From: Dehalococcoidia bacterium
Lineage (GTDB): Bacteria; Chloroflexota; Dehalococcoidia; GIF9; UBA5629
Direction of reading: 5' to 3'
DNA: 64,000 nt
NCBI GenBank assembly: GCA_050011565.1
Contig: JBEKIW010000001.1
Location: forward strand, 192,001-256,000
Shown here: positions 50,387-62,270 of the stretch, piece after piece
Layout: the number at the start of each line of letters is the position of its first letter
Position numbering within the stretch: position 1 is the stretch's first letter
Made by a program: the position numbers and the translations under genes
The notes under the pieces: model-generated
Told to the model about the DNA's origin: nothing
What the model saw: only the letters and a program-made list of their open reading frames with translations
The model's database searches: none

Positions 50387-50732
50387 CCGCTCGGCTTTAC
50401 TCCCTCTCCCGCGGGCGGAAGGGTGGGCAGGCATCCAATGAGGATTTACTCCCATTGGGATACGGGGAGAGGGATAGGGTTGGGGTGAGGGTGGAACCTT
50501 ATCATTTTGGTCGAAAAACGCTCGGTCAAAAGAACTAGCCTATTTGTCTACGGGGGAAACTGTGCGAAGGTATATGCCTTATCGGAGTAAGCAGATATGC
50601 CCAAAATTAATTTTGTTGGTGTATAATCAGATAAAGATTTAAATTGAATAAATAAGTCAATCATATAGATTGTGGCATTTTCGACTAAAGATTATAAAGT
50701 CTAATTGAACATGCAACTTTAGGAAAAAACAT

Positions 50733-52226
50733 ATGTCAGAATGGACAAAGCCCGCTCTCGATGATATAGAGTTTGTTAAGGCCGTTAGCGCGATTCAGAA
50801 ACGTGCTGAGAAACAAACGGACTCTGACAGATTAATCGATATTTATGTGACTACAGACCTAGCCAATCGTGCTAGAACCACTAATTCACAGCTAGTTTTA
50901 GGCAGACGTGGCACAGGTAAGACGCATATGTTTCGCGTTTTGCAAGAAATGCTTGGAATGGAGGGAGAAGTTGCACTTTACATAGATTGTAGAATGTTAG
51001 GAAGTGCGATAACCGACTCAACAGGAAACCCCCAAGGGGTAGCTATTAAATATTTTAGAACTCTTCTTAATGAGATTAGCACACGATTATTTGATATGGC
51101 TAGACGTATGGAAGCACCAATAAAGGATTCACAACAAAAAGTTTTCGGTACCGTCTGGGGTTTGCTCCTACAGATAGAACCTAAATCCACAGAGAAATAT
51201 TATGAATCAACATTTAATTATAGGCAAATAACGGAATCAATGCAGACAATTATTTCCGGTTTGGATATACGTCATCTATTCATAATATTGGATGAGTGGT
51301 CACAAATTCCAGTATCAGCACAACCCTATGTTGCAGAATATCTTAAAAGGGCAATTATGACTATTCCAGAAATATGTATCAAATTATTGGCCTTAAGCTA
51401 TCAATGCGACCTATCTAAACAAATCAGTGAAGGAGTAATAGGCATCAAACTTGGAGCAGATATCCCGGATGTCTTGGATTTTGATTCGTATTTAATATAT
51501 GATGAAAAACCGATTTTTGTTTCAGAGTTCTTTTCTCAAGTTCTTTACAATCATCTCGGTGCCGAACTAAACTGGGATCTCAAGATAACCGGTCAAGAAA
51601 AGAGCAAAAGGATAATAGATATATTCACACAGAATAAAGCTTTCACTGAATTAGTGCGTGCAGCTGAAGGGAATTGTAGAGATTTCCTATGCATATTTGG
51701 TAATGCATATTGGGAAGGTTATCGTAAGCAAGAGGATGTAAAAGCCATAAGTATGTCACATGTTCGCGATGCCGCTGCTAGTTGGTTTGATAATGAAAAG
51801 TATGCAAACATACGAAATGACATACTCCCAAGTATGGCACTTATGTATATATTCAATAATCTTATCAAGGGATACAAATCTCGGACTTTCATGGTCGAAA
51901 CCTCGAAATCTAAACATGAGATTTTGACCAGGTTACTAAATGAACGTGTTTTACATAAATTACCAAGATTTGACTCGCATAAAGATAAACCTGGTGAAAG
52001 ATATGAACTATTTACGATTGATTATGGGGCATATGTAAGGTTCATAGGAACCGTTTACGAGCCGAACCAAGGAATGGTTAAAAATGGATATCAAGCTAAA
52101 ATGCATTTTGCAGATGAGGTGGTCACAGTGCAAGATGAAGAACAAGAATTCATGGTTCCTCACGATGATAGACGTAGCGTACGACGTATTGTATTTGATC
52201 CAGATGCGATTAAGATTCCAAAATGA
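50733..52226 (+). CDS. AT-rich orphan P-loop ATPase (STAND/ORC-CDC6-like)
   Basis: Walker A GRRGTGKT, Walker B FIILDEW, GNCRDF sensor-like motif, C-terminal IDYGAY; visibly lower GC than the flanks. Confidence 0.7.
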   Translation: MSEWTKPALDDIEFVKAVSAIQKRAEKQTDSDRLIDIYVTTDLANRARTTNSQLVLGRRGTGKTHMFRVLQEMLGMEGEVALYIDCRMLGSAITDSTGNPQGVAIKYFRTLLNEISTRLFDMARRMEAPIKDSQQKVFGTVWGLLLQIEPKSTEKYYESTFNYRQITESMQTIISGLDIRHLFIILDEWSQIPVSAQPYVAEYLKRAIMTIPEICIKLLALSYQCDLSKQISEGVIGIKLGADIPDVLDFDSYLIYDEKPIFVSEFFSQVLYNHLGAELNWDLKITGQEKSKRIIDIFTQNKAFTELVRAAEGNCRDFLCIFGNAYWEGYRKQEDVKAISMSHVRDAAASWFDNEKYANIRNDILPSMALMYIFNNLIKGYKSRTFMVETSKSKHEILTRLLNERVLHKLPRFDSHKDKPGERYELFTIDYGAYVRFIGTVYEPNQGMVKNGYQAKMHFADEVVTVQDEEQEFMVPHDDRRSVRRIVFDPDAIKIPK

Positions 52227-52235
52227 TTTTGCCAC

Positions 52236-52350
52236 TGCTTGAAGCGAGCAAAAATTAGAGTTTGAAAAAGTTACCCTTCCTCGGCAATCGCATTATTTAG
52301 CTGAACGAGACGCGGAGATTCTATTTTCGTTGAATATATTCCATCAGGAG
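52236..52350 (+). pseudogene. Third, degenerate copy of the uvrB 3' end
   Basis: Reads KLEFEKVTL/LGNRII*L/DAEILFSLNIFHQE with frameshifts; colinear with [32 protein letters not shown]. Confidence 0.65.
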
Positions 52351-52389
52351 TCATTTTTAATAAGCATTCTAACAACTATAGAACAGAAT

Positions 52390-53079
52390 TCAAAGGTTAC
52401 TTAGAAACGCTTCGATTGCCCGATTCGCTTCCACTGGTTTTTCCAGGAGGCAGTGATGCGTGGCGCCCTCGATAATCACCAGTTTGGCCCCTGCGATTTG
52501 ATTGACCAGATATTGAGAATACTTTAGAGGCGTCATATCGTCCTCGGTGCCGCAAATAACCAGCGTTGGAACCGCGATGTGCCTTACCTTATCCATTACA
52601 TCGAACTTATCACAGCACCGAAAATCATTGAGCTGCACGGCGGCACCTACTTTAGCCATTCCATTAACTATTTTCTTCGCTACATCAGGAGCCACCCGAC
52701 TATATGGAGGTTCAGCTACTTTTTTGAGCCACTGAGCCGGGGCATTGATACTATCTTCTAGTTTCTTCAGCAAGTCAGGCCGTACCCTCAGCCGTGCACC
52801 GGTATTGATTAATATTAGTGCTTTAACATCTTCCGGATAACTCAGCGCATACATCAGAGCTATGGCACCGCCCAGGGAATGCCCGGCAATGACAGGCGGT
52901 GAATGATCTCCTCGTCTGAAATATCCATGTAGCCACTGCGCATACTCGTCTATGCTGGTGCATGGCTTGCCTTCAGGATGCCCCGGAAGATTGATAGCTT
53001 CAGAACCGGTGAAGTATTTTGTCTGGTAATGCCATTCCAAACTGGTGTTGCCAGCGCCGTGAATGAAGATTAACCTCAT
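52390..53079 (-). CDS. Alpha/beta hydrolase
   Basis: FIHGAG, LPGH, GHSLGG, G.ED.MTP, ATH; start reset to ATG 53079 because the upstream extension is REP DNA. Confidence 0.9.
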   Translation of the reverse strand: MRLIFIHGAGNTSLEWHYQTKYFTGSEAINLPGHPEGKPCTSIDEYAQWLHGYFRRGDHSPPVIAGHSLGGAIALMYALSYPEDVKALILINTGARLRVRPDLLKKLEDSINAPAQWLKKVAEPPYSRVAPDVAKKIVNGMAKVGAAVQLNDFRCCDKFDVMDKVRHIAVPTLVICGTEDDMTPLKYSQYLVNQIAGAKLVIIEGATHHCLLEKPVEANRAIEAFLSNL

Positions 53080-54563: not shown

Positions 54564-54700
54564 TCTATTCACCCACTCCCCAGCCCTCTCCCTCAAGGGA
54601 GAGGGGGACTAATGGAGATATAAAATCCCTCTCAATCTCCCTTTACGAAAGGGAGAAGTTTCATTCTTCGACAAGCTCAGAATGAGCGGTAACAAAGGCG

Positions 54701-54741
54701 AAAAGAAAGAGCCGGCACCTGTTACAGAACAAGTGCCGGCT
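54701..54741 (-). terminator. Intrinsic terminator closing the FHA locus
   Basis: AGCCGGCACTTGTT-CTGT-AACAGGTGCCGGCT followed by CTTTCTTTT on minus. Confidence 0.75.
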
Positions 54742-54751
54742 TTAAATGTGG

Positions 54752-56038
54752 CTAAGTTTTGAAGGTCAGGGTAAGGATGTCGGCAAGCTCGACTTTGTCA
54801 CCTTCTCTCAATAAGTACCTGCCTTTTCCCTCGATACTGGACCTGTTCAGTTTGGTGCCGTTGGTGCTGTTGCGGTCCTCGATATAACATTCTCCATCTT
54901 CACAGTCGAATCGTATGTGCTGCCTGGAAATCAGGTCAGCTTTGTCCGGCTTCACCAGGGAGCGGAAATCACTTCTGCCCAGAGATCCGGCATTGCCGGA
55001 TAGGGATAATTGCTCACCGTTCGACAATATAAACTTCGGCCCAGGGCCCGTGTCGACGGGTGTGGTGGCCGGGGCACCATTTGCAGTCCGTGTAGCGGTA
55101 GCCAGATATCCGGCCCGTGCACCGGCATAGGCTGCGGTAGGCCTTCTAACAAAAAGGACGACGGCCGCCGCGGCGGCTACAGCCAGAAGTCCGAGCAACA
55201 TGATATACAACATCCCGGAATTGCCCGAGCCGTCGCCGCTCAACCCGCTGGTCAAGATACTACTTGTTCCCGTATTGGCGACGTTTCCACTGCCGGCTAT
55301 TGGCGTGCTGCTGGTGGTGTAGGTGGATACGTACGGAGCGACCGTCACGGTGGTGCTGGCATTCACGCTGCCATCGCTATTGGTAGCCGTAAGTGTATAG
55401 GTAGTTGTATAACCAGGACTCAGATTGTATGAGCCAGAACTTGGGACAGACCCAATCCCGGGGGATAAAGTGACCGTAGTTGCATCGTTCACCGTCCACG
55501 TCAGCACAATTCCCTGCCCACTCTGAATGTAAGATGGGTTAGCGGTAAACGAGTTGATTACCGGCGGACAGTCAATTTGCGGTTGAGGCTGCCGTTGAGG
55601 CTGCTGAACTACTACCACGTTCGAACATACGTAATAGGACCACCTATAGTTACAAGGCCAGGAACATTCCGGACAACAGCGAAAGTATTGATTAGGCCAC
55701 GGGGAGCTCCACCTATAGGGTGGTGGTGGTGTAGGTGGGGCAGGCGGCGGCGGAGGAGGAGGAGGAGGAGGTGGTGGTGGAGGTGGTGGAGGTGGTGGAG
55801 GTGGCGGTGGTGGCGGTGCCGATGGTGCAGGTGGTGGAGGAGCAGAAGAGGTAGAGGTGGCGGTGGCAGTAGCAGTAGCAGTGGCAGTGGCGGAGGAATC
55901 GGTGGTGGTGACCGTAGCGGTGGCCGTAGCGGTGGCCGTAGCGGTATCTTCGGCAGATACCGGTGTGGCCTGGAATACTGGCGCAGAGCATAGTAATAAT
56001 GCTGCTGCAAGGACTAGGATTGCTTTTTTGAAGTTCAT
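54752..56038 (-). CDS. Single-pass membrane protein: signal peptide, Thr/Ala and poly-Pro stalk, Cys-rich segment, Ig-like module, TM, cytoplasmic FHA
   Basis: AAGGAGG RBS; MNFKK signal peptide; TM followed by RRP; FHA motifs LGRSDF..ISRQH..EDRNSTNGT. Confidence 0.85.
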   Translation of the reverse strand: MNFKKAILVLAAALLLCSAPVFQATPVSAEDTATATATATATVTTTDSSATATATATATATSTSSAPPPPAPSAPPPPPPPPPPPPPPPPPPPPPPPPPAPPTPPPPYRWSSPWPNQYFRCCPECSWPCNYRWSYYVCSNVVVVQQPQRQPQPQIDCPPVINSFTANPSYIQSGQGIVLTWTVNDATTVTLSPGIGSVPSSGSYNLSPGYTTTYTLTATNSDGSVNASTTVTVAPYVSTYTTSSTPIAGSGNVANTGTSSILTSGLSGDGSGNSGMLYIMLLGLLAVAAAAAVVLFVRRPTAAYAGARAGYLATATRTANGAPATTPVDTGPGPKFILSNGEQLSLSGNAGSLGRSDFRSLVKPDKADLISRQHIRFDCEDGECYIEDRNSTNGTKLNRSSIEGKGRYLLREGDKVELADILTLTFKT

Positions 56039-56141
56039 TGTACCTCCTTATTTATTTTTTATTTTTTAAACTTCAATAACAGAACAGAGCAAACCAAAAA
56101 TGCTGTTGTCAGGATGAAAATTGTCTTTCTGAAATTCATGG

Positions 56142-57725
56142 TCACTCCTTATTTATATTTTGTTTCTGGAAATTGATGCTAAGTTTGCCGGCAAGCTCAA
56201 TTACATCGCCGTCAGCCAGCGCATGCCGGCCGGTCCCCTTGATATCCGTACCGTTGACCCTGGTGCCGTTGGTGCTGCTGCGGTCCTCGATGTAGTACTG
56301 GTCGTTTTCGGACCATATGTTGATGTGCTGCCTGGATATGTAAGAGACCTGTGCACTGGGCATGAAATCCTCAAAGTCACGCCTGCCGAACGACCTGGTA
56401 TTACCTGCCAGCAGTATATCGTTCCCGCCCGCCAGGGAGAGTTTAGCCGCGGCGGCCTCTACCACAGGCGTGGTGACTGGCTGTGTATCCGAGGTATTTG
56501 TGTCTTCAGTCTGAGTGGCGTGTCCTGCTTGTGTGTCTGCCGCCTGTACCCTGCGGGCTTTAGCAGGTCTCCTGATAAGCAAAATGGCTATGACTATGAC
56601 CGTTATGGCCAGCAAGGCTATAAGGCCCCAGAGCAAATAGGGCGGCTGCTCTACATTGACCGTTACCGATGTTGACTGCGAAGTACCGTCAATATAGGCA
56701 GCGGTCAGGGTGTACGTAGTCGTATTATCCGGCGATACCTGCGTGGTGCCGCTGATGTCGGCGCTGCCGACGCCGGTGATTAGTACCCGGATTGCCCCGG
56801 GGGCATTCCAGTAGAGGGACGTCGACTGCCCCCTCTGTATGGTGGACTGGCTCATATTAATGGTGGGCGACACCCTGGGCCTGACCGTTATGGTTGCAGT
56901 CGATGAAACAGAGCTGCCCGATTTGCCGTTGGCCGCCAGAGTATAGGTGGTGGTGGCGGTTGGACTCACCGTAGTAGAGCCGGAAGCGGCGACCGTTCCA
57001 ACTCCGGGTGATATGCTCACGCTGGCAGCGTTAGTGGTCGTCCAGGTGAGTATAGCTGTCTCACCGGCTTCGATAGAAGATTTGTTGGCGCTGAATGAGC
57101 TAATCGATGGGGGATTATAAACCGGCGCCGGCGTAAAGTCGGGTATGTCCGGTGGATAATAACTCCGGATGTAATTGAAGTTCAATAAACGCGTCGACCA
57201 TGAATACCCGGAAAGGAACCACATCCTCCAGGTGTACCCTCCGGCAGGGTCAAACGACTGGGCGGCAAAAGGACCTATTCTCCAGACGCCGGCGTACGGG
57301 CGATACCATCTGTAACACAGCCAGTGTCCGTAGGGCGAAGTGCCGTAAGGGTAGTATTCCCATAGATAGAAATAGCCCGGCCCGTTGAAGGAAACGACCA
57401 GATAGATTGCCTCGTTTCCATATAGGTTGCTCAGTGTCTGACCGTAGCTGTTGACGAGGTAGGCATTTACCATTGAGCTCGGGATACCGGGTTCCAGGGA
57501 CAGCGGCGCCATTTGCAGGCTCGGCGAGGTCTGGCTGTATGTTTCCGCTGGCACCGGTGGCTCTATAGACTCTCCTCCTTCATCGGGAGGTTGCCATGAT
57601 TCATCAGGGCTTAATGGCGGAACCGGGTTGTCGTCTGCCCGGACGGGTGAGATTTCAGTAATGGCGACTGAGAAAGCCAGGGTGGTGACCAGCAAAGCTA
57701 TCAAGATTTTTTTCATGTGTGACAT
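56142..57725 (-). CDS. Single-pass membrane protein: signal peptide, aromatic-rich domain, two Ig-like modules, TM, cytoplasmic FHA
   Basis: GGGAG RBS before ATG 57725; MKKILI signal peptide; TM followed by RRP; FHA motifs FGRRDF..ISRQH..EDRSSTNGT. Confidence 0.85.
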   Translation of the reverse strand: MSHMKKILIALLVTTLAFSVAITEISPVRADDNPVPPLSPDESWQPPDEGGESIEPPVPAETYSQTSPSLQMAPLSLEPGIPSSMVNAYLVNSYGQTLSNLYGNEAIYLVVSFNGPGYFYLWEYYPYGTSPYGHWLCYRWYRPYAGVWRIGPFAAQSFDPAGGYTWRMWFLSGYSWSTRLLNFNYIRSYYPPDIPDFTPAPVYNPPSISSFSANKSSIEAGETAILTWTTTNAASVSISPGVGTVAASGSTTVSPTATTTYTLAANGKSGSSVSSTATITVRPRVSPTINMSQSTIQRGQSTSLYWNAPGAIRVLITGVGSADISGTTQVSPDNTTTYTLTAAYIDGTSQSTSVTVNVEQPPYLLWGLIALLAITVIVIAILLIRRPAKARRVQAADTQAGHATQTEDTNTSDTQPVTTPVVEAAAAKLSLAGGNDILLAGNTRSFGRRDFEDFMPSAQVSYISRQHINIWSENDQYYIEDRSSTNGTRVNGTDIKGTGRHALADGDVIELAGKLSINFQKQNINKE

Positions 57726-57760
57726 TAAACTCCCGAATACCATATGTTCTATTAAGATTA

Positions 57761-57826
57761 ACTATACGTCTGGCGGGAGCAGGCTGCTTGACTCTGGGCT
57801 GACAGGTCACTGACAGTTACCTGACA
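57761..57826 (-). promoter_or_regulatory. Promoter with four phased 11-bp direct repeats (pho-box-like)
   Basis: Plus strand TTGACT(57788), CTGACA(57799), CTGACA(57810), CTGACA(57821); minus-strand -10 TATAGT at 57766-57761, 21 nt away. Confidence 0.75.
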
Positions 57827-57887
57827 AAATAGAAGACGCAGATAAATTATTATTGAGGGGTTAATCTGTGATGGGTTTTCCCAGGGG

Positions 57888-58970
57888 TCAAAGGAGGTGA
57901 AACTTTAGATGTACCGCACCGGCCGGTTCTATAATGTCATCGTCATCCAGGCTGACCGGTCCCTGGCCGCTGATGTCCTTGCCGTTTAGATGGGTGCCGT
58001 TGGCGCTGCCCAGGTCCTCGACGTAGAACTGCTCGTCGTCCAATTTAATCTGGAAATGTCGTCTGGAGATGAGCCCCAGGTCATCCAGGCTTAGCGCTCT
58101 GGCGAGGTCACCCCGGCCTATCACTCTGCTCTTGCCGGAAAGCTGAATATCGATGCCATTGGGTAAGGTTATTTTTGCCCTGGCGGCTGATGGTAAGGCT
58201 GCAGATAGGTCTTTAGTCTTTGCCCCACCTGACGAGGATACACTATCCTGACTTCTCCTTCGCCTGATATAAATCGGCAGCAGAGCCAGACCGACCACTA
58301 CGACCAGCAGGCAGGCGCCGAGAACCGGCCGGGTGATAAGTCCAAAGACTGTAGCGGGGAAGCTAGCTTCTTTGGCAGGGGCTTCGGGTGATGGTGGCGG
58401 TACCGGCTCAGCAGGTTTGCCTTTCGAATACGTCCAGTAAACAAGATTATTCTGTGGAGTATCCGGGTTTCCAGCAGCCCATTGGCCGTCGCTGTAGAAC
58501 CGAATCCGGTAAATATGTTGTCCCTCCGGTTCGTTATTCGTGGGTGTAAAGGGGCCAAGCCGCCACAGGCCGCTTTCCAGCAATTGCCATTTGTAGGCTA
58601 GCCACTGTCCCTGAAAATCACCGCCAGCCGGAAAGGATTCATATATATAAATCCACCCGGGCATGTTTATGTCCACGTCCAGGTACCAGTTTTCATTTGC
58701 AGTGACCGTGAATTCTTCCTGTCCTGAGGCAGCGATGAAACCAGCTATAAAGTTAGGAGTCGTATTTTCAGACTGAGACGTAGGTTCCACCAGGACATAT
58801 TCGACCGGCGGCTTGATTTCAACCTGAGACTGGTCGCCGGCGGGGACATTCGGTATAGTCGTATTATCAGTTGGCGCTCCCAGCGCCCCGACATATGCCG
58901 TCTGGAGGCTCAGCGCTGAAAAAACGCCGAAAATCAAAGTAAAAGTAAGCAACAGTAACGCTTTTCTCAT
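57888..58970 (-). CDS. Single-pass membrane protein: signal peptide, aromatic-rich domain, TM, cytoplasmic FHA
   Basis: MRKALL signal; TM followed by RRRR; FHA motifs IGRGDL..ISRRH..EDLGSANGT; 4-bp overlap with the kinase gene. Confidence 0.85.
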   Translation of the reverse strand: MRKALLLLTFTLIFGVFSALSLQTAYVGALGAPTDNTTIPNVPAGDQSQVEIKPPVEYVLVEPTSQSENTTPNFIAGFIAASGQEEFTVTANENWYLDVDINMPGWIYIYESFPAGGDFQGQWLAYKWQLLESGLWRLGPFTPTNNEPEGQHIYRIRFYSDGQWAAGNPDTPQNNLVYWTYSKGKPAEPVPPPSPEAPAKEASFPATVFGLITRPVLGACLLVVVVGLALLPIYIRRRRSQDSVSSSGGAKTKDLSAALPSAARAKITLPNGIDIQLSGKSRVIGRGDLARALSLDDLGLISRRHFQIKLDDEQFYVEDLGSANGTHLNGKDISGQGPVSLDDDDIIEPAGAVHLKFHLL

Positions 58971-59992
58971 TTCCGTGACTTGACCTCGACAGACTTTACC
59001 GGATAGCCGTCCGCTGACGATAAAGCGGCACGAAAAGCTTGTGCGTCAGCAAACCTGTGGTCGGCGGAGAACAGTATGCCCTGTGCCAGGCATTTTGCCG
59101 TGCGCTTGGATATGCCGCAGGAAATAAGGTAATCGGCAACAGCAGTGGCTTCAGCGTAAGAACGCGGCCAGTTGGACTTGAACAAGTCCAGGCAAATCTC
59201 GTTCGGCTGCTTGAGTGTGAGGAGATATATACAGGTCTGTGCCAGGCCGAAGAGGTCGCAGCGCTGGTCGCAGTCCCCGCCAATGAACAATTCGGGAATA
59301 TCGAAACCCTTGTTTGTTATCTTGGTGAACGGGTCATGGCCTGCCTTATCTTTGCCTGAACCATTCAAGTTTTTCGCCGTGCCGAAATCGATAAGCTTGA
59401 CCGTGCCGTCGCTGCTCAACATGATGTTCTTTGGGTTAATATCCCTGTGAATTACGCCAGCTTTGTGAATATAGGAAAGAGCATCCAGCAGCTGGCAAGC
59501 CCAGGCGACGACCTGTGGCTCCTGAAAAGGAGTTCTCGGCGATGATGCCATTAGGGTCTCTCCATTCACGTACTCAACGACCAGGTGAAATTCGCCCTTA
59601 TAGTAGAAATTGTCGACGTATTTAACGATGCCGGTATGTTTCAGCCGCTTCAGGTAGCTGGCTTCCAGCATCAGCTTGTCCAGGTACACGTTATCCATCG
59701 TCGTGCCCCGGCGCGGTGTCTTGATAATGCACGCCCTGCCTGTTCTGCGCTCCCGGGCGAACCATATAGTCGCCATGCCACCCTGTTTATGAGGCGGTGC
59801 CATCAGTTCATAGCGACTGTTAACGACGTATATGTTATTACCCGCCTGGGCAGGTATCTGTGTCTTCCCGTGGTTTGAACGTGAGCTGTGGCTCTTACGC
59901 TTACGAAGGGCAATCAATATAGCCACGGCTACTATCAGAACCGTATAGACCAGGACCATTAACAAAACGATATCATCTGTAGGCCACATCAT
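58967..59992 (-). CDS. Hanks-type Ser/Thr protein kinase with N-terminal TM anchor
   Basis: GGMATIW, IIK, HTGIV, EYVNG, IHRDINPKNI, LIDFG, PE, DLFGL. Confidence 0.9.
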   Translation of the reverse strand: MMWPTDDIVLLMVLVYTVLIVAVAILIALRKRKSHSSRSNHGKTQIPAQAGNNIYVVNSRYELMAPPHKQGGMATIWFARERRTGRACIIKTPRRGTTMDNVYLDKLMLEASYLKRLKHTGIVKYVDNFYYKGEFHLVVEYVNGETLMASSPRTPFQEPQVVAWACQLLDALSYIHKAGVIHRDINPKNIMLSSDGTVKLIDFGTAKNLNGSGKDKAGHDPFTKITNKGFDIPELFIGGDCDQRCDLFGLAQTCIYLLTLKQPNEICLDLFKSNWPRSYAEATAVADYLISCGISKRTAKCLAQGILFSADHRFADAQAFRAALSSADGYPVKSVEVKSRK

Positions 59993-60807
59993 ATTCTCCT
60001 GATGCTGGTCTGGGCTGTAATCATAGCCTGCCAGGATGGAAGGTTGTCGGGTTTCACCACTATTATCGATATATTATCCGGTCCGCCCGCCAGGTTAGCC
60101 TGAGCCGTCAGGTCAATGCAGGCCTGGTTGGGATTGGGAGAACCGGTAACGGTCTCCGATATCTCAGGTGAAGGCAACACGCCGCACAGACCGTCGGAAC
60201 AGAGGAGGATATTGTCACCGGCGTATAGTTTTACATGAAACAGGTCCGGGACAACGGTCCGGGCATAACCAAGTACGCGCGTTATCTCGTTCTTGCGCGG
60301 GTGGTTCCAGGCTTGTTCCGGTGTGATAGTTCCTGCATCCACGAGCTGTTGGACTACAGAATGGTCTTTGGTGATCTGGATGGTCTCCCGTCCGTTGATT
60401 ACATAGCACCTGGAATCGCCTATATGGGCGACATATAGGTCCTCACCTACAACAAGTGCAGCGGTCAGGGTAGTACCCATGCCTTTCAACTCACCCTCGG
60501 CGGCAGAATCCAGAACCTTGCGGTTAGCCTTCTTGAAGGCAGCAGCCAAAATAGACAGGGGTGGAGTCGGGGACTGGGCGAGAAGACCGGAAATACACTC
60601 TGCATGGAGGGTCCTGGTGGCGAGGTCGCTGGCAATTTCACCGGCACTGTGCCCGCCCATACCGTCTGCCACGGCAAAGAGGCCAGCGGAGATTGTTCCC
60701 AGGTGGGTCCTGAGATCGAAGCTGGTGCATAAAACGCTATCTTCGTTGAGGTCTCTTAGCAGACCTGTGTCCCAGCTATAACCTATTTCCAATCGGTCCT
60801 CCGGCAT
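59989..60807 (-). CDS. PP2C-family (Stp1/PrpC-like) Ser/Thr phosphatase
   Basis: R..NED, VADGMGGH..GE.AS, MGTT, HIGDSR.Y, TKDHS, LLCSDGL, GGPDNIS. Confidence 0.93.
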   Translation of the reverse strand: MPEDRLEIGYSWDTGLLRDLNEDSVLCTSFDLRTHLGTISAGLFAVADGMGGHSAGEIASDLATRTLHAECISGLLAQSPTPPLSILAAAFKKANRKVLDSAAEGELKGMGTTLTAALVVGEDLYVAHIGDSRCYVINGRETIQITKDHSVVQQLVDAGTITPEQAWNHPRKNEITRVLGYARTVVPDLFHVKLYAGDNILLCSDGLCGVLPSPEISETVTGSPNPNQACIDLTAQANLAGGPDNISIIVVKPDNLPSWQAMITAQTSIRRI

Positions 60808-60814
60808 TTCTGCT

Positions 60815-61411
60815 TCATTTCGACTCTTTCAGCAATTTGAAAGTCAGTGTAAGTTCCGGCTGACCGGCCAGTTCAATCTTATCGCCGTCTTGGAGAGCCT
60901 TCTTTCTTTTGTCATAGATATCAATTCCGTTAAGCCTGGTATGGTTGGTGCTGCCCTTACCGTCGCGTCCGTAGTCCTTCAAGTAGTATTTGCCTCTATC
61001 ACAGGTAATCAAAATATGCTGCCTGGAAACTCTCATCAGCAACTCTGGTGATAATGTGCCGTTAAAATCGCCGCGCTCTATGAACACAGGCTCACCGGTG
61101 AGGGTGATTTCACCACCGCCCGGCATCATCACCTTAGCTTTCGGCGCCGAAGACCGCAGTGCGCCCCGTTTCTGCCTGACTGGCCGCTTGCTTATTTTTG
61201 TTTCCTCTACATCGGCGAAATATTTACCGCAGGTGTAACAGAAAAAACTGGCGGCATTGTTTGTGCTCCGGCACCTGGGGCAGATGATTTTGCGTTCAGG
61301 CCCGTCCGGCGCTATGGCGGCAAGAGGCAGCCCGCATTTGCGACAGACTTTTTCGTGCGGCTCATTCTTTGTATGGCATGCCCGACAAAGCACTTTGGCT
61401 CGTTTAGTCAT
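60815..61411 (-). CDS. Double zinc-ribbon + FHA domain protein
   Basis: CRAC..CRKCG..CPRC..CYTCG then FHA (ERGDF..VSRQH..GSTNHT); start set at ATG 61411 because the longer ORF overlaps the divergent regulator antisense. Confidence 0.8.
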   Translation of the reverse strand: MTKRAKVLCRACHTKNEPHEKVCRKCGLPLAAIAPDGPERKIICPRCRSTNNAASFFCYTCGKYFADVEETKISKRPVRQKRGALRSSAPKAKVMMPGGGEITLTGEPVFIERGDFNGTLSPELLMRVSRQHILITCDRGKYYLKDYGRDGKGSTNHTRLNGIDIYDKRKKALQDGDKIELAGQPELTLTFKLLKESK

Positions 61412-61439
61412 TATTTTAGCAGTCCGTGGTTTTAACATC

Positions 61440-61505
61440 AGTGTAATTGATTGATGAGGACTTTGCTTGACAGCTTTCTGACAAATACCTAATATAAATC
61501 TGATA
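61440..61505 (-). promoter_or_regulatory. Promoter with phased 11-bp direct repeats in the divergent intergenic region
   Basis: Plus strand TTGACA(61467), CTGACA(61478), CTAATA(61489), CTGATA(61500); minus-strand -10 TACACT at 61445-61440, 21 nt away. Confidence 0.68.
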
Positions 61506-61586
61506 TACTCATGGTTACGGGACGATTGTGACGTACGTATTATACTACAGGGAGCGAATACGGGCCCAAACGAATGGAGGTAAGGC

Positions 61587-62270
61587 GTGGCTTCTCTAAT
61601 TGTGAAGAGGGGTAATGCGGAGGATGTCGGTAAAATCTTCACTTTGAACGACTCGTCTACCGTGGTGGGCCGCCTGACTTCGCAGAATAAACCTGATATA
61701 GAATTGGGCGCCGATGTTATTTCCAGACGGCACCTGGAAATCCTGCTGCAGGATGGCAGGTACTGGCTGAAAGACCTGGGCAGCACCAACGGCACCATGC
61801 TAAATGATGACAGGATAATTCCTGGCAATCTATACGAACTCAAGCATAACAGCAAGATCGGGCTTGGGGTGGAAGGAACTTCAGCGCAAACAGTTCTGCA
61901 GTTTAAGGAATCCGAAGATACTAACATAATGCACGGGAAAGAACCCCCGGCTGGAAAGCACGGCACGTTCCCTGCAGTGGCATGGCTGAAAATCGACGAG
62001 GGGAAAAAGGAAGCTGTGGTAGACGGCAAACAGCAGAAGCTATCCAAAAAGGAGTATGAGCTGATACGGTTGCTCTATAGAAATGCCGGAAATATATGCT
62101 CGCGTGACGAGATAATTGAAGCCGTATGGCCCGAAAGCCAGGACCCTTCGGCTATATCCGATGCCACCATCGACCAGCTAATTCACCGGCTGCGTGAAAA
62201 AGTGGAACCCGAACCTGCCAGCCCCTCGCGTATCATCAGCAAAAAAGCATTCGGTTATATGCTGGTGTAA
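61587..62270 (+). CDS. FHA + OmpR/PhoB-type winged-helix transcriptional regulator
   Basis: GGAGG RBS; FHA VGR..ISRRH..DLGSTNGT; wHTH LSKKEYELI.LL..SRDEIIEAVW..IDQLIHRLREKVEPEP.SP..I..GY. Confidence 0.9.
   Translation: MASLIVKRGNAEDVGKIFTLNDSSTVVGRLTSQNKPDIELGADVISRRHLEILLQDGRYWLKDLGSTNGTMLNDDRIIPGNLYELKHNSKIGLGVEGTSAQTVLQFKESEDTNIMHGKEPPAGKHGTFPAVAWLKIDEGKKEAVVDGKQQKLSKKEYELIRLLYRNAGNICSRDEIIEAVWPESQDPSAISDATIDQLIHRLREKVEPEPASPSRIISKKAFGYMLV

Follow-up and report, generated by a model that had tools for sequence, protein, structure and literature searches.

A predicted autoregulated Ser/Thr phospho-signalling cassette with five FHA domains in a Dehalococcoidia bacterium

We analysed a 64,000-nucleotide stretch of DNA (the window) from Dehalococcoidia bacterium (assembly GCA_050011565.1, contig JBEKIW010000001.1, positions 192,001-256,000 of the forward strand; GTDB GIF9; UBA5629), in which seven contiguous genes at positions 54752-62270 (all such coordinates are those of the window) encode a Hanks-type kinase, a PP2C phosphatase and five FHA proteins. 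With a probability of roughly 0.6, we interpret this cassette as an autoregulated Ser/Thr phospho-signalling unit, in which the membrane kinase would act on a regulator that joins an FHA domain to an OmpR/PhoB-type winged helix, and this regulator would in turn control the cassette through two conserved arrays of direct repeats.

Components of the cassette

Domains were called by Pfam profile match and topology by a hydropathy and positive-inside script. Six of the genes lie on the minus strand and are transcribed in the order zinc-ribbon-FHA protein, PP2C, kinase, R3, R2 and R1, where R1 to R3 denote proteins with one transmembrane (TM) helix followed by an FHA domain; the regulator gene is divergent from this operon across a gap of 175 bp. 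The initial annotation had read seven contiguous genes and five FHA domains from the sequence, and Pfam confirmed each domain in its place. The FHA domains (PF00498) scored 37-62 bits against a cut-off of 20.7, with E-values of 1.2e-11 (R1), 3.2e-13 (R2), 2.2e-14 (R3), 3.5e-9 (zinc-ribbon protein) and 6e-17 (regulator), and the Arg, Ser-x-x-His and Asn residues of the phosphothreonine site are kept in all five translations (motifs GR/ER, SRxH and NG/NH-T).

The regulator combines an FHA domain (residues 1-105) with a winged helix-turn-helix (wHTH) effector domain (Trans_reg_C, residues 148-226; E 3.7e-19, 69 bits against 26.2). Neither a Response_reg (receiver domain) nor a BTAD match was found in it, and its domain order is opposite to that of EmbR, which places it outside the EmbR/SARP type and agrees with the contrast drawn in the initial annotation. 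The wHTH domain is nearest to RegX3, WalR and RstA in the PDB and to the PhoB, RpaB and YycF models of NCBIfam, PhoB being the best, so that its earlier description as a response regulator whose receiver is replaced by FHA is apt. The N-terminal half is nearest to GarA/OdhI and FhaA, and EmbR is absent among the 60 PDB matches listed for the regulator. An AlphaFold2 model from a 36-sequence alignment showed both domains with confidence, at a mean predicted local distance difference test score (pLDDT) of 91.7 and a predicted template modelling score of 0.54, with the linker between them (residues 112-126) below 50. T112 opens this low-confidence linker; at least 90% of 32 orthologues have Thr there, and the column in 36 diverse relatives holds 20 Thr and 5 Ser. 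It is our best candidate for the phospho-acceptor of the regulator. The FHA site residues are kept in most of 36 relatives (G28 in 36, R29 in 31, S46 in 36, H49 in 35 and N68 in 26).

The kinase belongs to the Hanks type (Pkinase, PF00069; E 8e-34, 117.7 bits against 31.7), with K91, E110, H182-R183-D184, N189, D202-F203 and the activation-segment T223 invariant in 21 sequences. Its N-terminal TM helix, followed by RKRK, leaves seven residues outside (5-8 among the orthologues listed), within the limit of ten given by the initial annotation. Its best NCBIfam match is the kinase half of PknB_PASTA_kin (NF033483; positions 4-160 of 563, 113 bits against 450), and with an N-terminal TM helix and seven outside residues it falls outside the PknB/Stk1 PASTA kinases. 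Pfam coverage (positions 9-196 of 263) stops before the C-terminal 80 residues, which, judging from this coverage and from conservation, appear to be the diverged end of the kinase fold and no extra domain. The phosphatase (Pfam E 2.2e-15) belongs to the Stp1 family (Stp1_PP2C_phos, NF033484; 241.9 bits, above the cut-off of 230, positions 3-232 of 232), and 30 sequences share its DGMGGH, DG and DN motifs. The zinc-ribbon-FHA protein has no TM helix and matches DZR (E 1.8e-7, 31.6 bits against 27.3) and FHA (37.4 bits); its second ribbon is conserved in 22 sequences, as are the motifs ERG...SRQH...NHT. It thereby has the zinc-finger-FHA architecture of the ArnA and FraH type, a resemblance at the level of architecture and not of orthology.

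Predicted operator sites

Two intergenic regions of the cassette carry arrays of direct repeats. Site A, in the divergent region, consists of four hexamers spaced by 11 bp (TTGACA at 61467, CTGACA at 61478, CTAATA at 61489 and CTGATA at 61500) and overlaps the plus-strand promoter of the regulator gene, TTGACA-17-TAATAT at 61467-61495, which is the only 10-of-12 sigma-70-type match in this region. On the minus strand of the same region, a -10 element TACACT (61445-61440) is separated by 18 bp from TGCTTGAC at 61464-61471. Site B, between R3 and R2, holds TTGACT and three copies of CTGACA at 57788, 57799, 57810 and 57821 on the plus strand and ends at 57826; on the minus strand these repeats become CTGTCAG and are followed by TGCTTGAC, 17 bp and a -10 element TATAGT at 57766-57761. 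Read on the minus strand, both sites present CTGTCA-type repeats directed along the operons, each ending in GTCAAGCA, and at both the distance from GTCAAGCA to the conserved -10-like hexamer is 17-18 bp with no good -35 element, so that sites A and B share the same geometry relative to their minus-strand -10. Direct repeats with an 11-bp period in place of a -35 element are the geometry of PhoB-activated promoters at the Pho box.

One genome per species was scanned, which gave 32 orthologous loci with regulators 67-90% identical to that of the window; these loci were searched with the window proteins by tblastn. In the orthologue alignment, a block of ~45 bp in the divergent intergenic region is nearly invariant amid variable surroundings, and all 22 regions that were aligned conserve site B. 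Arrays anchored on TGCTTGAC occur at site A in 32/32 loci and at site B in 27/32; site B is missing at contig ends (L029, L035 and L043), in L041, which is without R2, and in L058. All 61 matches to the strict repeat pair in ~531 kb from the 32 loci fall at site A or B. In the 2.0-Mb genome of the source organism (8 contigs, 99.2% complete), the strict pair YTGACA-N5-YTGACA occurs five times, three of them in the cassette, versus none in a reversed control. A scan for three consecutive units, using an 11-bp matrix that had been trained on sites A and B, gave nine genomic matches above 14 bits and none in the reversed sequence; the top four (23-34 bits) were sites A and B, with site B the highest of the genome at 34.4 bits and site A at 32.4 and 29.0, and the next best match scored 19.2. 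The arrays point to a conserved predicted operator and to PhoB-like autoregulation, in which the regulator would activate the two minus-strand units and occlude its own promoter.

The only strict pairs outside the cassette, both intergenic and both containing a -35-like TTGACA, lie at C1:495175-495191 and C1:534398-534414. The former is 61 bp upstream of an SCP2-like gene that is followed by an Fe-alcohol dehydrogenase gene, and the latter is in a long gap near a small zinc-ribbon open reading frame (ORF) and a serine recombinase. These could be weak extra targets or mere -35-like boxes.

Pairing of the regulator with kinases in the Chloroflexota

A library-wide HMMER search with the regulator returned 15083 matches at E <=1e-3. 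Many of these relatives are 205-250 aa long and match end to end at 28-47% identity, and FHA precedes Trans_reg_C in 10 of 10 sampled distant ones. The few named relatives, Chloroflexota proteins from metagenome-assembled genomes (MAGs) and one Fictibacillus protein of the same architecture, are all called 'FHA domain-containing protein'. Full-length FHA-wHTH proteins (best E <=1e-27 with a 36-protein profile) were found in 91 of 401 sampled Chloroflexota genomes, often with 2-7 copies per genome where present.

We then examined a distant set of 40 FHA-wHTH loci with local FHA and wHTH profiles and with phmmer searches for the cassette kinase and PP2C. A Hanks kinase gene with a TM helix adjoins the FHA-wHTH gene in 33 of the 40, mostly divergently; 15 of these 33 kinases are tail-anchored proteins of ~330 aa without an ectodomain, and the rest carry ectodomains. 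No PP2C was found in the 40 loci, and an extra FHA gene accompanies only two of them. Because of this adjacency, the pair of membrane kinase and FHA-wHTH regulator is, on comparative grounds, the conserved core of the system; PP2C, the zinc-ribbon-FHA protein and R1-R3 are thus additions specific to this Dehalococcoidia clade. The earlier proposal that the signal leaves through the FHA-wHTH regulator is likewise backed by the pairing, and comparative genomics gives good support to this protein as the transcriptional output of the kinase. One relative (L022, G038:C17, 7318-8713) has two tandem FHA-wHTH genes 33-35% identical to that of the window, with no kinase detected in the DNA examined.

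Self-containment and distribution

A genome-wide profile search returned FHA exactly five times and Pkinase and PP2C_2 once each, in every case within the cassette. Because every such match in the genome sits in one locus, the clustering exceeds chance, and chance was also rejected on the grounds that the gene order is syntenic across relatives. By these profiles, the cassette is the entire Ser/Thr phospho-system found in the genome, comprising one kinase, one phosphatase and five readers, as the description of a self-contained system had anticipated. The complete set of seven genes, with order and orientation unchanged, is present in 20 of the 32 orthologous loci, which disposes of the objection that the genes might not be syntenic; in two more the third TM-FHA gene is more divergent, nine loci are interrupted by contig ends and one (L041) is without R2 and R1 and keeps the kinase, R3 and the regulator. 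In some MAG copies, cassette genes are broken into two or three pieces, which could reflect frameshifts or assembly errors. One cassette-bearing contig (L029) is labelled Planctomycetota; its regulator is 80% identical to that of the window, like those of the Dehalococcoidia loci, and the label is probably a binning or labelling error in the MAG.

A census of FHA and kinase matches covered 25 genomes (the source genome G000 and 24 relatives). Four genomes (G005, G006, G007 and G013) have five or six FHA domains and a single kinase gene each; G009 has five FHA domains and no Pkinase match, its kinase gene being in two pieces, and G011, with a contig end inside the cassette, has three FHA domains and one kinase. 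Same-genus genomes lacking the cassette are nearly devoid of either domain: G002 and G012 have no kinase or FHA match, G001 has one weak kinase fragment, G003 one weak FHA and G008 a kinase and an FHA gene side by side. In ten genomes that belong to other families of the order, the search gave no FHA and a single kinase in total. Kinase and FHA clusters unrelated to the cassette were also observed, as extra clusters in G004 (C21:16689-19528) and G010 (C6:17395-19068) and as the pair in G008 (C8:76323-77813); among them are a trio of the type FHA-kinase-FHA and a kinase whose neighbour is a 919-aa protein carrying two FHA domains. Ser/Thr modules seem to be gained and lost as units in this lineage.

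The regulator is present in only 8 of 13 same-genus genomes and a TrmH/CDP-alcohol flank is retained in only some orthologous loci, a patchiness that would also suit an anti-phage defence system or mobile island gained and lost whole; the kinase, moreover, matches the PADLOC models PD-T4-6 (3.9e-43) and mad6. These matches, however, are confined to the generic kinase domain; of the six remaining cassette proteins, five match no defence model and PP2C gives one weak match, so that we rejected assignment to a PADLOC defence system. The cassette contains no nuclease, NTPase or other effector gene, its G+C content resembles that of the surrounding DNA, neither an integrase nor repeats were found in its flanks in the window, and the conserved self-operator and wHTH regulator fit a regulatory circuit. 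We consider an accessory defence or mobile element very improbable. Separately, the window contains at 50733-52226 on the plus strand a gene for a 497-aa ORC/Cdc6-like ATPase (PF24389, E 1.5e-9; weak PADLOC mad8 match, 1.8e-4), in a stretch (50500-52500) of 36-38.5% G+C versus ~45-54% nearby, which may be a foreign or defence-related island.

Gene organization

The features of the cassette are listed in Table 1. The 4-bp overlaps of PP2C with kinase (59989-59992) and of kinase with R3 (ATGA, 58967-58970), as well as the closing terminator, which begins 10 bases past the R1 stop, bear out the initial annotation. Of 24 orthologous loci, 22 retain the kinase/R3 overlap, and R3 is predicted from it to be translationally coupled to the kinase. 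For the zinc-ribbon gene, a 410-aa frame with a TTG start was rejected because orthologues align from residue 1 of the ATG start at 61411. The true start of R2 is probably about six codons downstream of the listed one, near 57725, where MSHMKK follows a conserved GGGAG. Between the cassette terminator and a nitronate-monooxygenase-like gene lies a perfect 10-nt G/C-rich hairpin (CCCTCTCCCT / AGGGAGAGGG, 54584-54605), and an intergenic region in locus L028 is lengthened by similar G/C-rich palindromic inserts; both may be elements resembling repetitive extragenic palindromes or miniature inverted-repeat transposable elements.

Table 1. Features of the cassette and its control regions (window coordinates)
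Feature	Position	Strand	Description
Terminator of the R2-R1 unit	54710-54741	minus	Intrinsic; 14-pair stem with 8 G-C pairs, 4-nt loop, then CTTTCTTTTC T run
R1	54752-56038	minus	Signal peptide, Ala/Thr- and Pro-rich stalk, Cys-rich stretch, one immunoglobulin (Ig)-like domain, TM 279-297, C-terminal FHA
R2	56142-57743	minus	Signal peptide, Trp/Tyr-rich beta-sandwich, two Ig-like domains, TM 372-390, Thr-rich linker, FHA
R2-R1 promoter with site B	57761-57826	minus	Predicted activator-dependent promoter
R3	57888-58970	minus	Signal peptide, Trp/Tyr-rich beta-sandwich ectodomain, TM 217-235, FHA
Kinase	58967-59992	minus	Hanks-type Arg-Asp (RD) kinase; N-terminal TM anchor 8-26, 7-residue outside stub, no ectodomain
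PP2C	59989-60807	minus	Stp1/IreP-type phosphatase
Zinc-ribbon-FHA protein	60815-61411	minus	Double zinc ribbon and FHA; 198 aa, soluble
Divergent control region with site A	61440-61505		Between the zinc-ribbon-FHA and regulator genes
Regulator	61587-62270	plus	FHA, flexible linker, OmpR/PhoB-type winged helix; 227 aa, GTG start after GGAGG

The TM-FHA proteins R1 to R3

Each of R1 to R3 has an N-terminal signal-like segment and one TM helix. Positive residues directly follow the helix (RRP in R1, RRPAKARR in R2 and RRRR in R3), which argues that the FHA domains are inside the cell and answers the concern that topology might put them outside. The Ig-like domain of R1 is 51% identical to that of R2, and the Trp/Tyr-rich domains of R2 and R3 are 32% identical. 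Orthologues of R1 align only from about residue 106-143 on, the N-terminus being variable. In the R2 linker, positions 404, 415, 420, 424 and 425 hold Thr, which 70-90% of 25 sequences share; the linkers of R3 and of the zinc-ribbon protein have no conserved Thr.

The ectodomains were difficult to assign. Pfam searches at E up to 1 with four ectodomain pieces left the Trp/Tyr-rich domains without a match and gave only Ig-like hints below threshold for the other pieces. AlphaFold2 modelled the R3 ectodomain from a 34-row alignment as a nine-strand beta core (pLDDT 67.5), for which Foldseek found no PDB match at E <=1e-3, VIA-align gave a best Z of 8.4 tied among macroglobulin, Ig, fibronectin type III, carbohydrate-binding module and S-layer sandwiches, and a protein-atlas search gave no usable match. 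The R3 ectodomain has 160 database relatives; every one of the 120 listed is an R3-type FHA protein, 249-377 aa long, from MAGs of the same kind. These models and searches suggest generic, clade-restricted beta-sandwiches for which no specific family can be named. The tails scored 33.8 (R1), 38.1 (R2) and 42.6 bits (R3) with the FhaB/FipA model (NF049868), below its cut-off of 125, and the R ectodomains add 190-340 aa over this small TM-FHA type. A complex prediction for the kinase with R3 residues 205-360 scored 0.00 and was counted neither way.

What these proteins do bears on how the kinase is controlled. The initial annotation saw in the cassette a split receptor, in which R1-R3 would be non-catalytic sensors whose ectodomains detect a cue and whose FHA tails dock on and gate a sensor-less kinase, so that the task of a single receptor kinase would be shared between the kinase and three co-receptors. 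The short outside stub of the kinase and its orthologues and the cytoplasmic FHA domains of R1-R3 are consistent with this arrangement. The ATGA overlap suggests one-to-one production of kinase and R3, and R3 stands beside the kinase in 30 of 32 loci, the other two ending at a contig edge. In addition, the 99.2%-complete genome has no match to penicillin-binding protein (PBP) transpeptidase (PF00905) or FtsW/RodA (PF01098) and only one to Mur_ligase_M, from which we conclude that the organism probably has no peptidoglycan; without the transpeptidase and FtsW/RodA, a PASTA-type sensor would lack anything to read, and the cell would need a different surface sensor.

Several observations speak against the sensor role. 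The ectodomains are generic Ig/macroglobulin-like sandwiches without a match to a ligand-binding family, and they are confined to the clade. A search with them against ORFs, kinase ectodomains included, of 45 other FHA-wHTH loci found no kinase-fused form and no match except an Ig-like protein at L020, fused forms above 630 aa lying outside the search. No R-like TM-FHA partners were found within 9 kb of the 15 tail-anchored distant kinases, which likewise have no ectodomain. The juxtamembrane segment of the kinase has no conserved Thr in the orthologue alignment, and L041 retains kinase, R3 and regulator without R2 and R1. Finally, the predicted operator stands before the R genes themselves, so that the R proteins may be outputs as much as inputs. 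We therefore hold the sensor role to be a tentative possibility. A broader version, in which the Chloroflexota would possess a widespread two-gene Ser/Thr counterpart of two-component systems with phosphothreonine-FHA docking in place of His-Asp transfer, and in which the kinase of this clade would have lost its ectodomain and be gated by R1-R3 in the manner of cytokine receptors, appears rather unlikely to us.

Alternatively, control may run from the inside out. R1-R3 would then be outputs, namely FhaB/FipA-type surface or S-layer-associated proteins that are made under the direction of the regulator and have cytoplasmic tails for the kinase to read or phosphorylate. In this arrangement, the cassette would form a feedback circuit through which a wall-less cell controls the display of its surface proteins. 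Both predicted operator sites would drive R genes, and no other comparable array occurs in the genome. FhaB/FipA (Rv0019c) is the best NCBIfam match of the R tails, and residues 373-504 of R2 cover positions 11-140 of that model, the TM-linker-FHA span, although all these scores are below cut-off. The R2 linker holds conserved TQ, TN and TTP threonines resembling kinase substrates, the R1 stalk is variable and rich in Pro and Ala/Thr, and the fold matches of the R3 ectodomain include S-layer, adhesin and macroglobulin domains, but these matches are all tied at Z ~7-8, a value common for unrelated sandwiches. At L020 (G019:C1, 2749-5440), a paralogous FHA-wHTH gene, 51% identical to that of the window, adjoins a gene for a 582-aa protein with Ig-like domains of the R1/R2 type and no FHA. 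Against this arrangement, phosphorylation of the R proteins is an assumption built into it, and it leaves the activator of the kinase unexplained. We regard it as conceivable but, like the sensor role, on the improbable side.

Proposed mechanism and its significance

For the cassette as an autoregulated unit, we propose the following sequence of events. The RD kinase would autophosphorylate its activation segment, probably at T223 and possibly at T226, and the FHA domain of the regulator would dock on the resulting phosphothreonine, for which the recruitment of GarA by PknB via its activation loop (a title cited in PMC6213207) and the FHA-dependent phosphorylation of EmbR by PknH (excerpt of PMC4601284) are precedents. 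The next step would be phosphorylation of the regulator by the kinase, probably at T112, where the linker begins, and FHA-phosphothreonine contacts between regulators would favour head-to-tail oligomers on the four 11-bp-spaced TGTCA/TGACA repeats. At site A, the bound regulator would cover both the -35 and -10 elements of its own promoter, repressing itself, and would replace the -35 element for the divergent operon of zinc-ribbon-FHA protein, PP2C, kinase and R3; at site B, it would do the same for R2-R1, as PhoB does at the Pho box. The Stp1-type PP2C would reset the system. The zinc-ribbon-FHA protein and R1-R3 may compete for or scaffold the same phosphothreonine sites and link kinase activity to the state of the cell surface, either as inputs or as outputs.

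Some points weigh against autoregulation by this route. The high rank of sites A and B in the matrix scan is partly circular, and because the matrix was trained on them only the absence of other arrays counts as independent. Conservation of site A may be due in part to the two overlapping promoters, since the repeat motif includes the -35 consensus TTGACA. Upstream of distant FHA-wHTH genes (42 loci) we found no clear TGACA arrays, so the operator is not generalisable; seven of the 40 distant FHA-wHTH genes have no adjacent kinase, and only 25 of the 36 diverse relatives have Thr or Ser at the position of T112. The relatives in our locus counts are non-independent samples. If the regulator controls its own cassette only, the physiological output is left unexplained. 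The cassette is known here from sequence alone: the analysis reached domains, topology, catalytic and binding residues, synteny, the phylum-wide adjacency of kinase and regulator, and the conservation of the repeat arrays and their uniqueness in the genome, and from these we infer binding, phosphorylation and regulation.

Bacterial Ser/Thr kinases usually have many diffuse targets; a kinase and a regulator devoted to each other, with an operator that can be read, would offer a rare and tractable case of one-to-one signalling. As the FHA-wHTH family occurs in about a quarter of the sampled Chloroflexota genomes, usually next to a kinase and under a generic name, one biochemical study could annotate hundreds of genes. 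With one kinase, one phosphatase, five readers and two predicted operator sites, the cassette would also offer a minimal closed network for studies of FHA competition, and it illustrates the role of a PknB/Stp1-type pair in a bacterium that probably lacks peptidoglycan.

Comparison with known systems

The initial annotation knew of no description of this module. In the full texts that we searched, mostly outside subscription journals and with supplements excluded, we also found none of FHA-Trans_reg_C regulators, of their kinase pairing in Chloroflexota or of ectodomain-TM-FHA proteins; the signalling logic, however, has published precedents in EmbR/PknH, FHA enhancer-binding proteins and ArnA/ArnB, to which the analysis adds a conserved candidate operator and the phylum-wide pairing of kinase and FHA-wHTH regulator.

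The genes embR and pknH are adjacent. As in the cassette, EmbR/PknH of Mycobacterium tuberculosis combines a membrane Hanks kinase with a regulator that joins an OmpR-type winged helix and FHA, and EmbR is phosphorylated in a way that depends on its FHA domain, which increases its binding to DNA and is undone by PP2C (excerpt of PMC4601284). In contrast to EmbR (wHTH-BTAD-FHA), the cassette regulator is arranged as FHA-linker-wHTH without BTAD, and its wHTH is nearest to response-regulator effector domains. It shares this DNA-binding domain with the OmpR/PhoB response regulators, and its predicted sites, 11-bp direct repeats at the -35 position of promoters with poor -35 elements, resemble PhoB at the Pho box. 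Unlike two-component systems, the cassette has no receiver domain and no histidine kinase; its input domain is FHA and its partner a Ser/Thr kinase. Replacement of a receiver by FHA, with presumed Ser/Thr kinase input, was reportedly described for enhancer-binding proteins of Myxococcus xanthus by Jelsbak, Givskov and Kaiser in 2005. Those are sigma-54 AAA+ proteins, whereas the cassette regulator is a small OmpR/PhoB effector of the sigma-70 type.

The actinobacterial gene order is fhaA-fhaB-pstP-rodA-pbpA-pknA-pknB. As in this cluster and in the Stp1/Stk1 (PrpC/PrkC) operons of Firmicutes, FHA proteins, PP2C and kinase share an operon in the cassette, and its kinase domain and R tails are nearest to PknB/Stk1 and FhaB/FipA; Rv0019c is listed as a PknA/B-linked FHA protein in an excerpt of PMC6213207. 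Unlike these operons, the cassette lacks PASTA domains and rodA/pbpA, its TM-FHA proteins have large ectodomains, and it includes a dedicated transcription factor.

Zinc ribbon(s) followed by FHA are the architecture of FraH. The cassette zinc-ribbon-FHA protein recalls the FraH-like DRA0333, without orthology being implied, and the Deinococcus DRA0331-0334 operon encodes a TM kinase, a stand-alone FHA protein and PP2C (excerpt of bioRxiv 10.64898/2026.01.23.701218). In Sulfolobus, ArnA (zinc finger and FHA) and ArnB act in transcriptional control with the kinases ArnC/ArnD and PP2A (excerpt of PMC5007285). Like ArnA, the cassette protein occurs with a Ser/Thr kinase and a phosphatase, but unlike ArnA/ArnB there is no vWA partner in the cassette.

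In type VI secretion systems (T6SS), the TagQRST proteins are non-catalytic envelope proteins upstream of PpkA. PpkA, PppA and Fha1 are listed as the threonine phosphorylation pathway of the Pseudomonas aeruginosa T6SS in an excerpt of PMC6213207. The output of that pathway is assembly of the secretion machine and its upstream proteins have no FHA domains, and no T6SS genes are present here; nevertheless, the cassette resembles TagQRST-PpkA-PppA-Fha1 in combining a kinase, a PP2C phosphatase and an FHA reader with separate non-catalytic envelope proteins.

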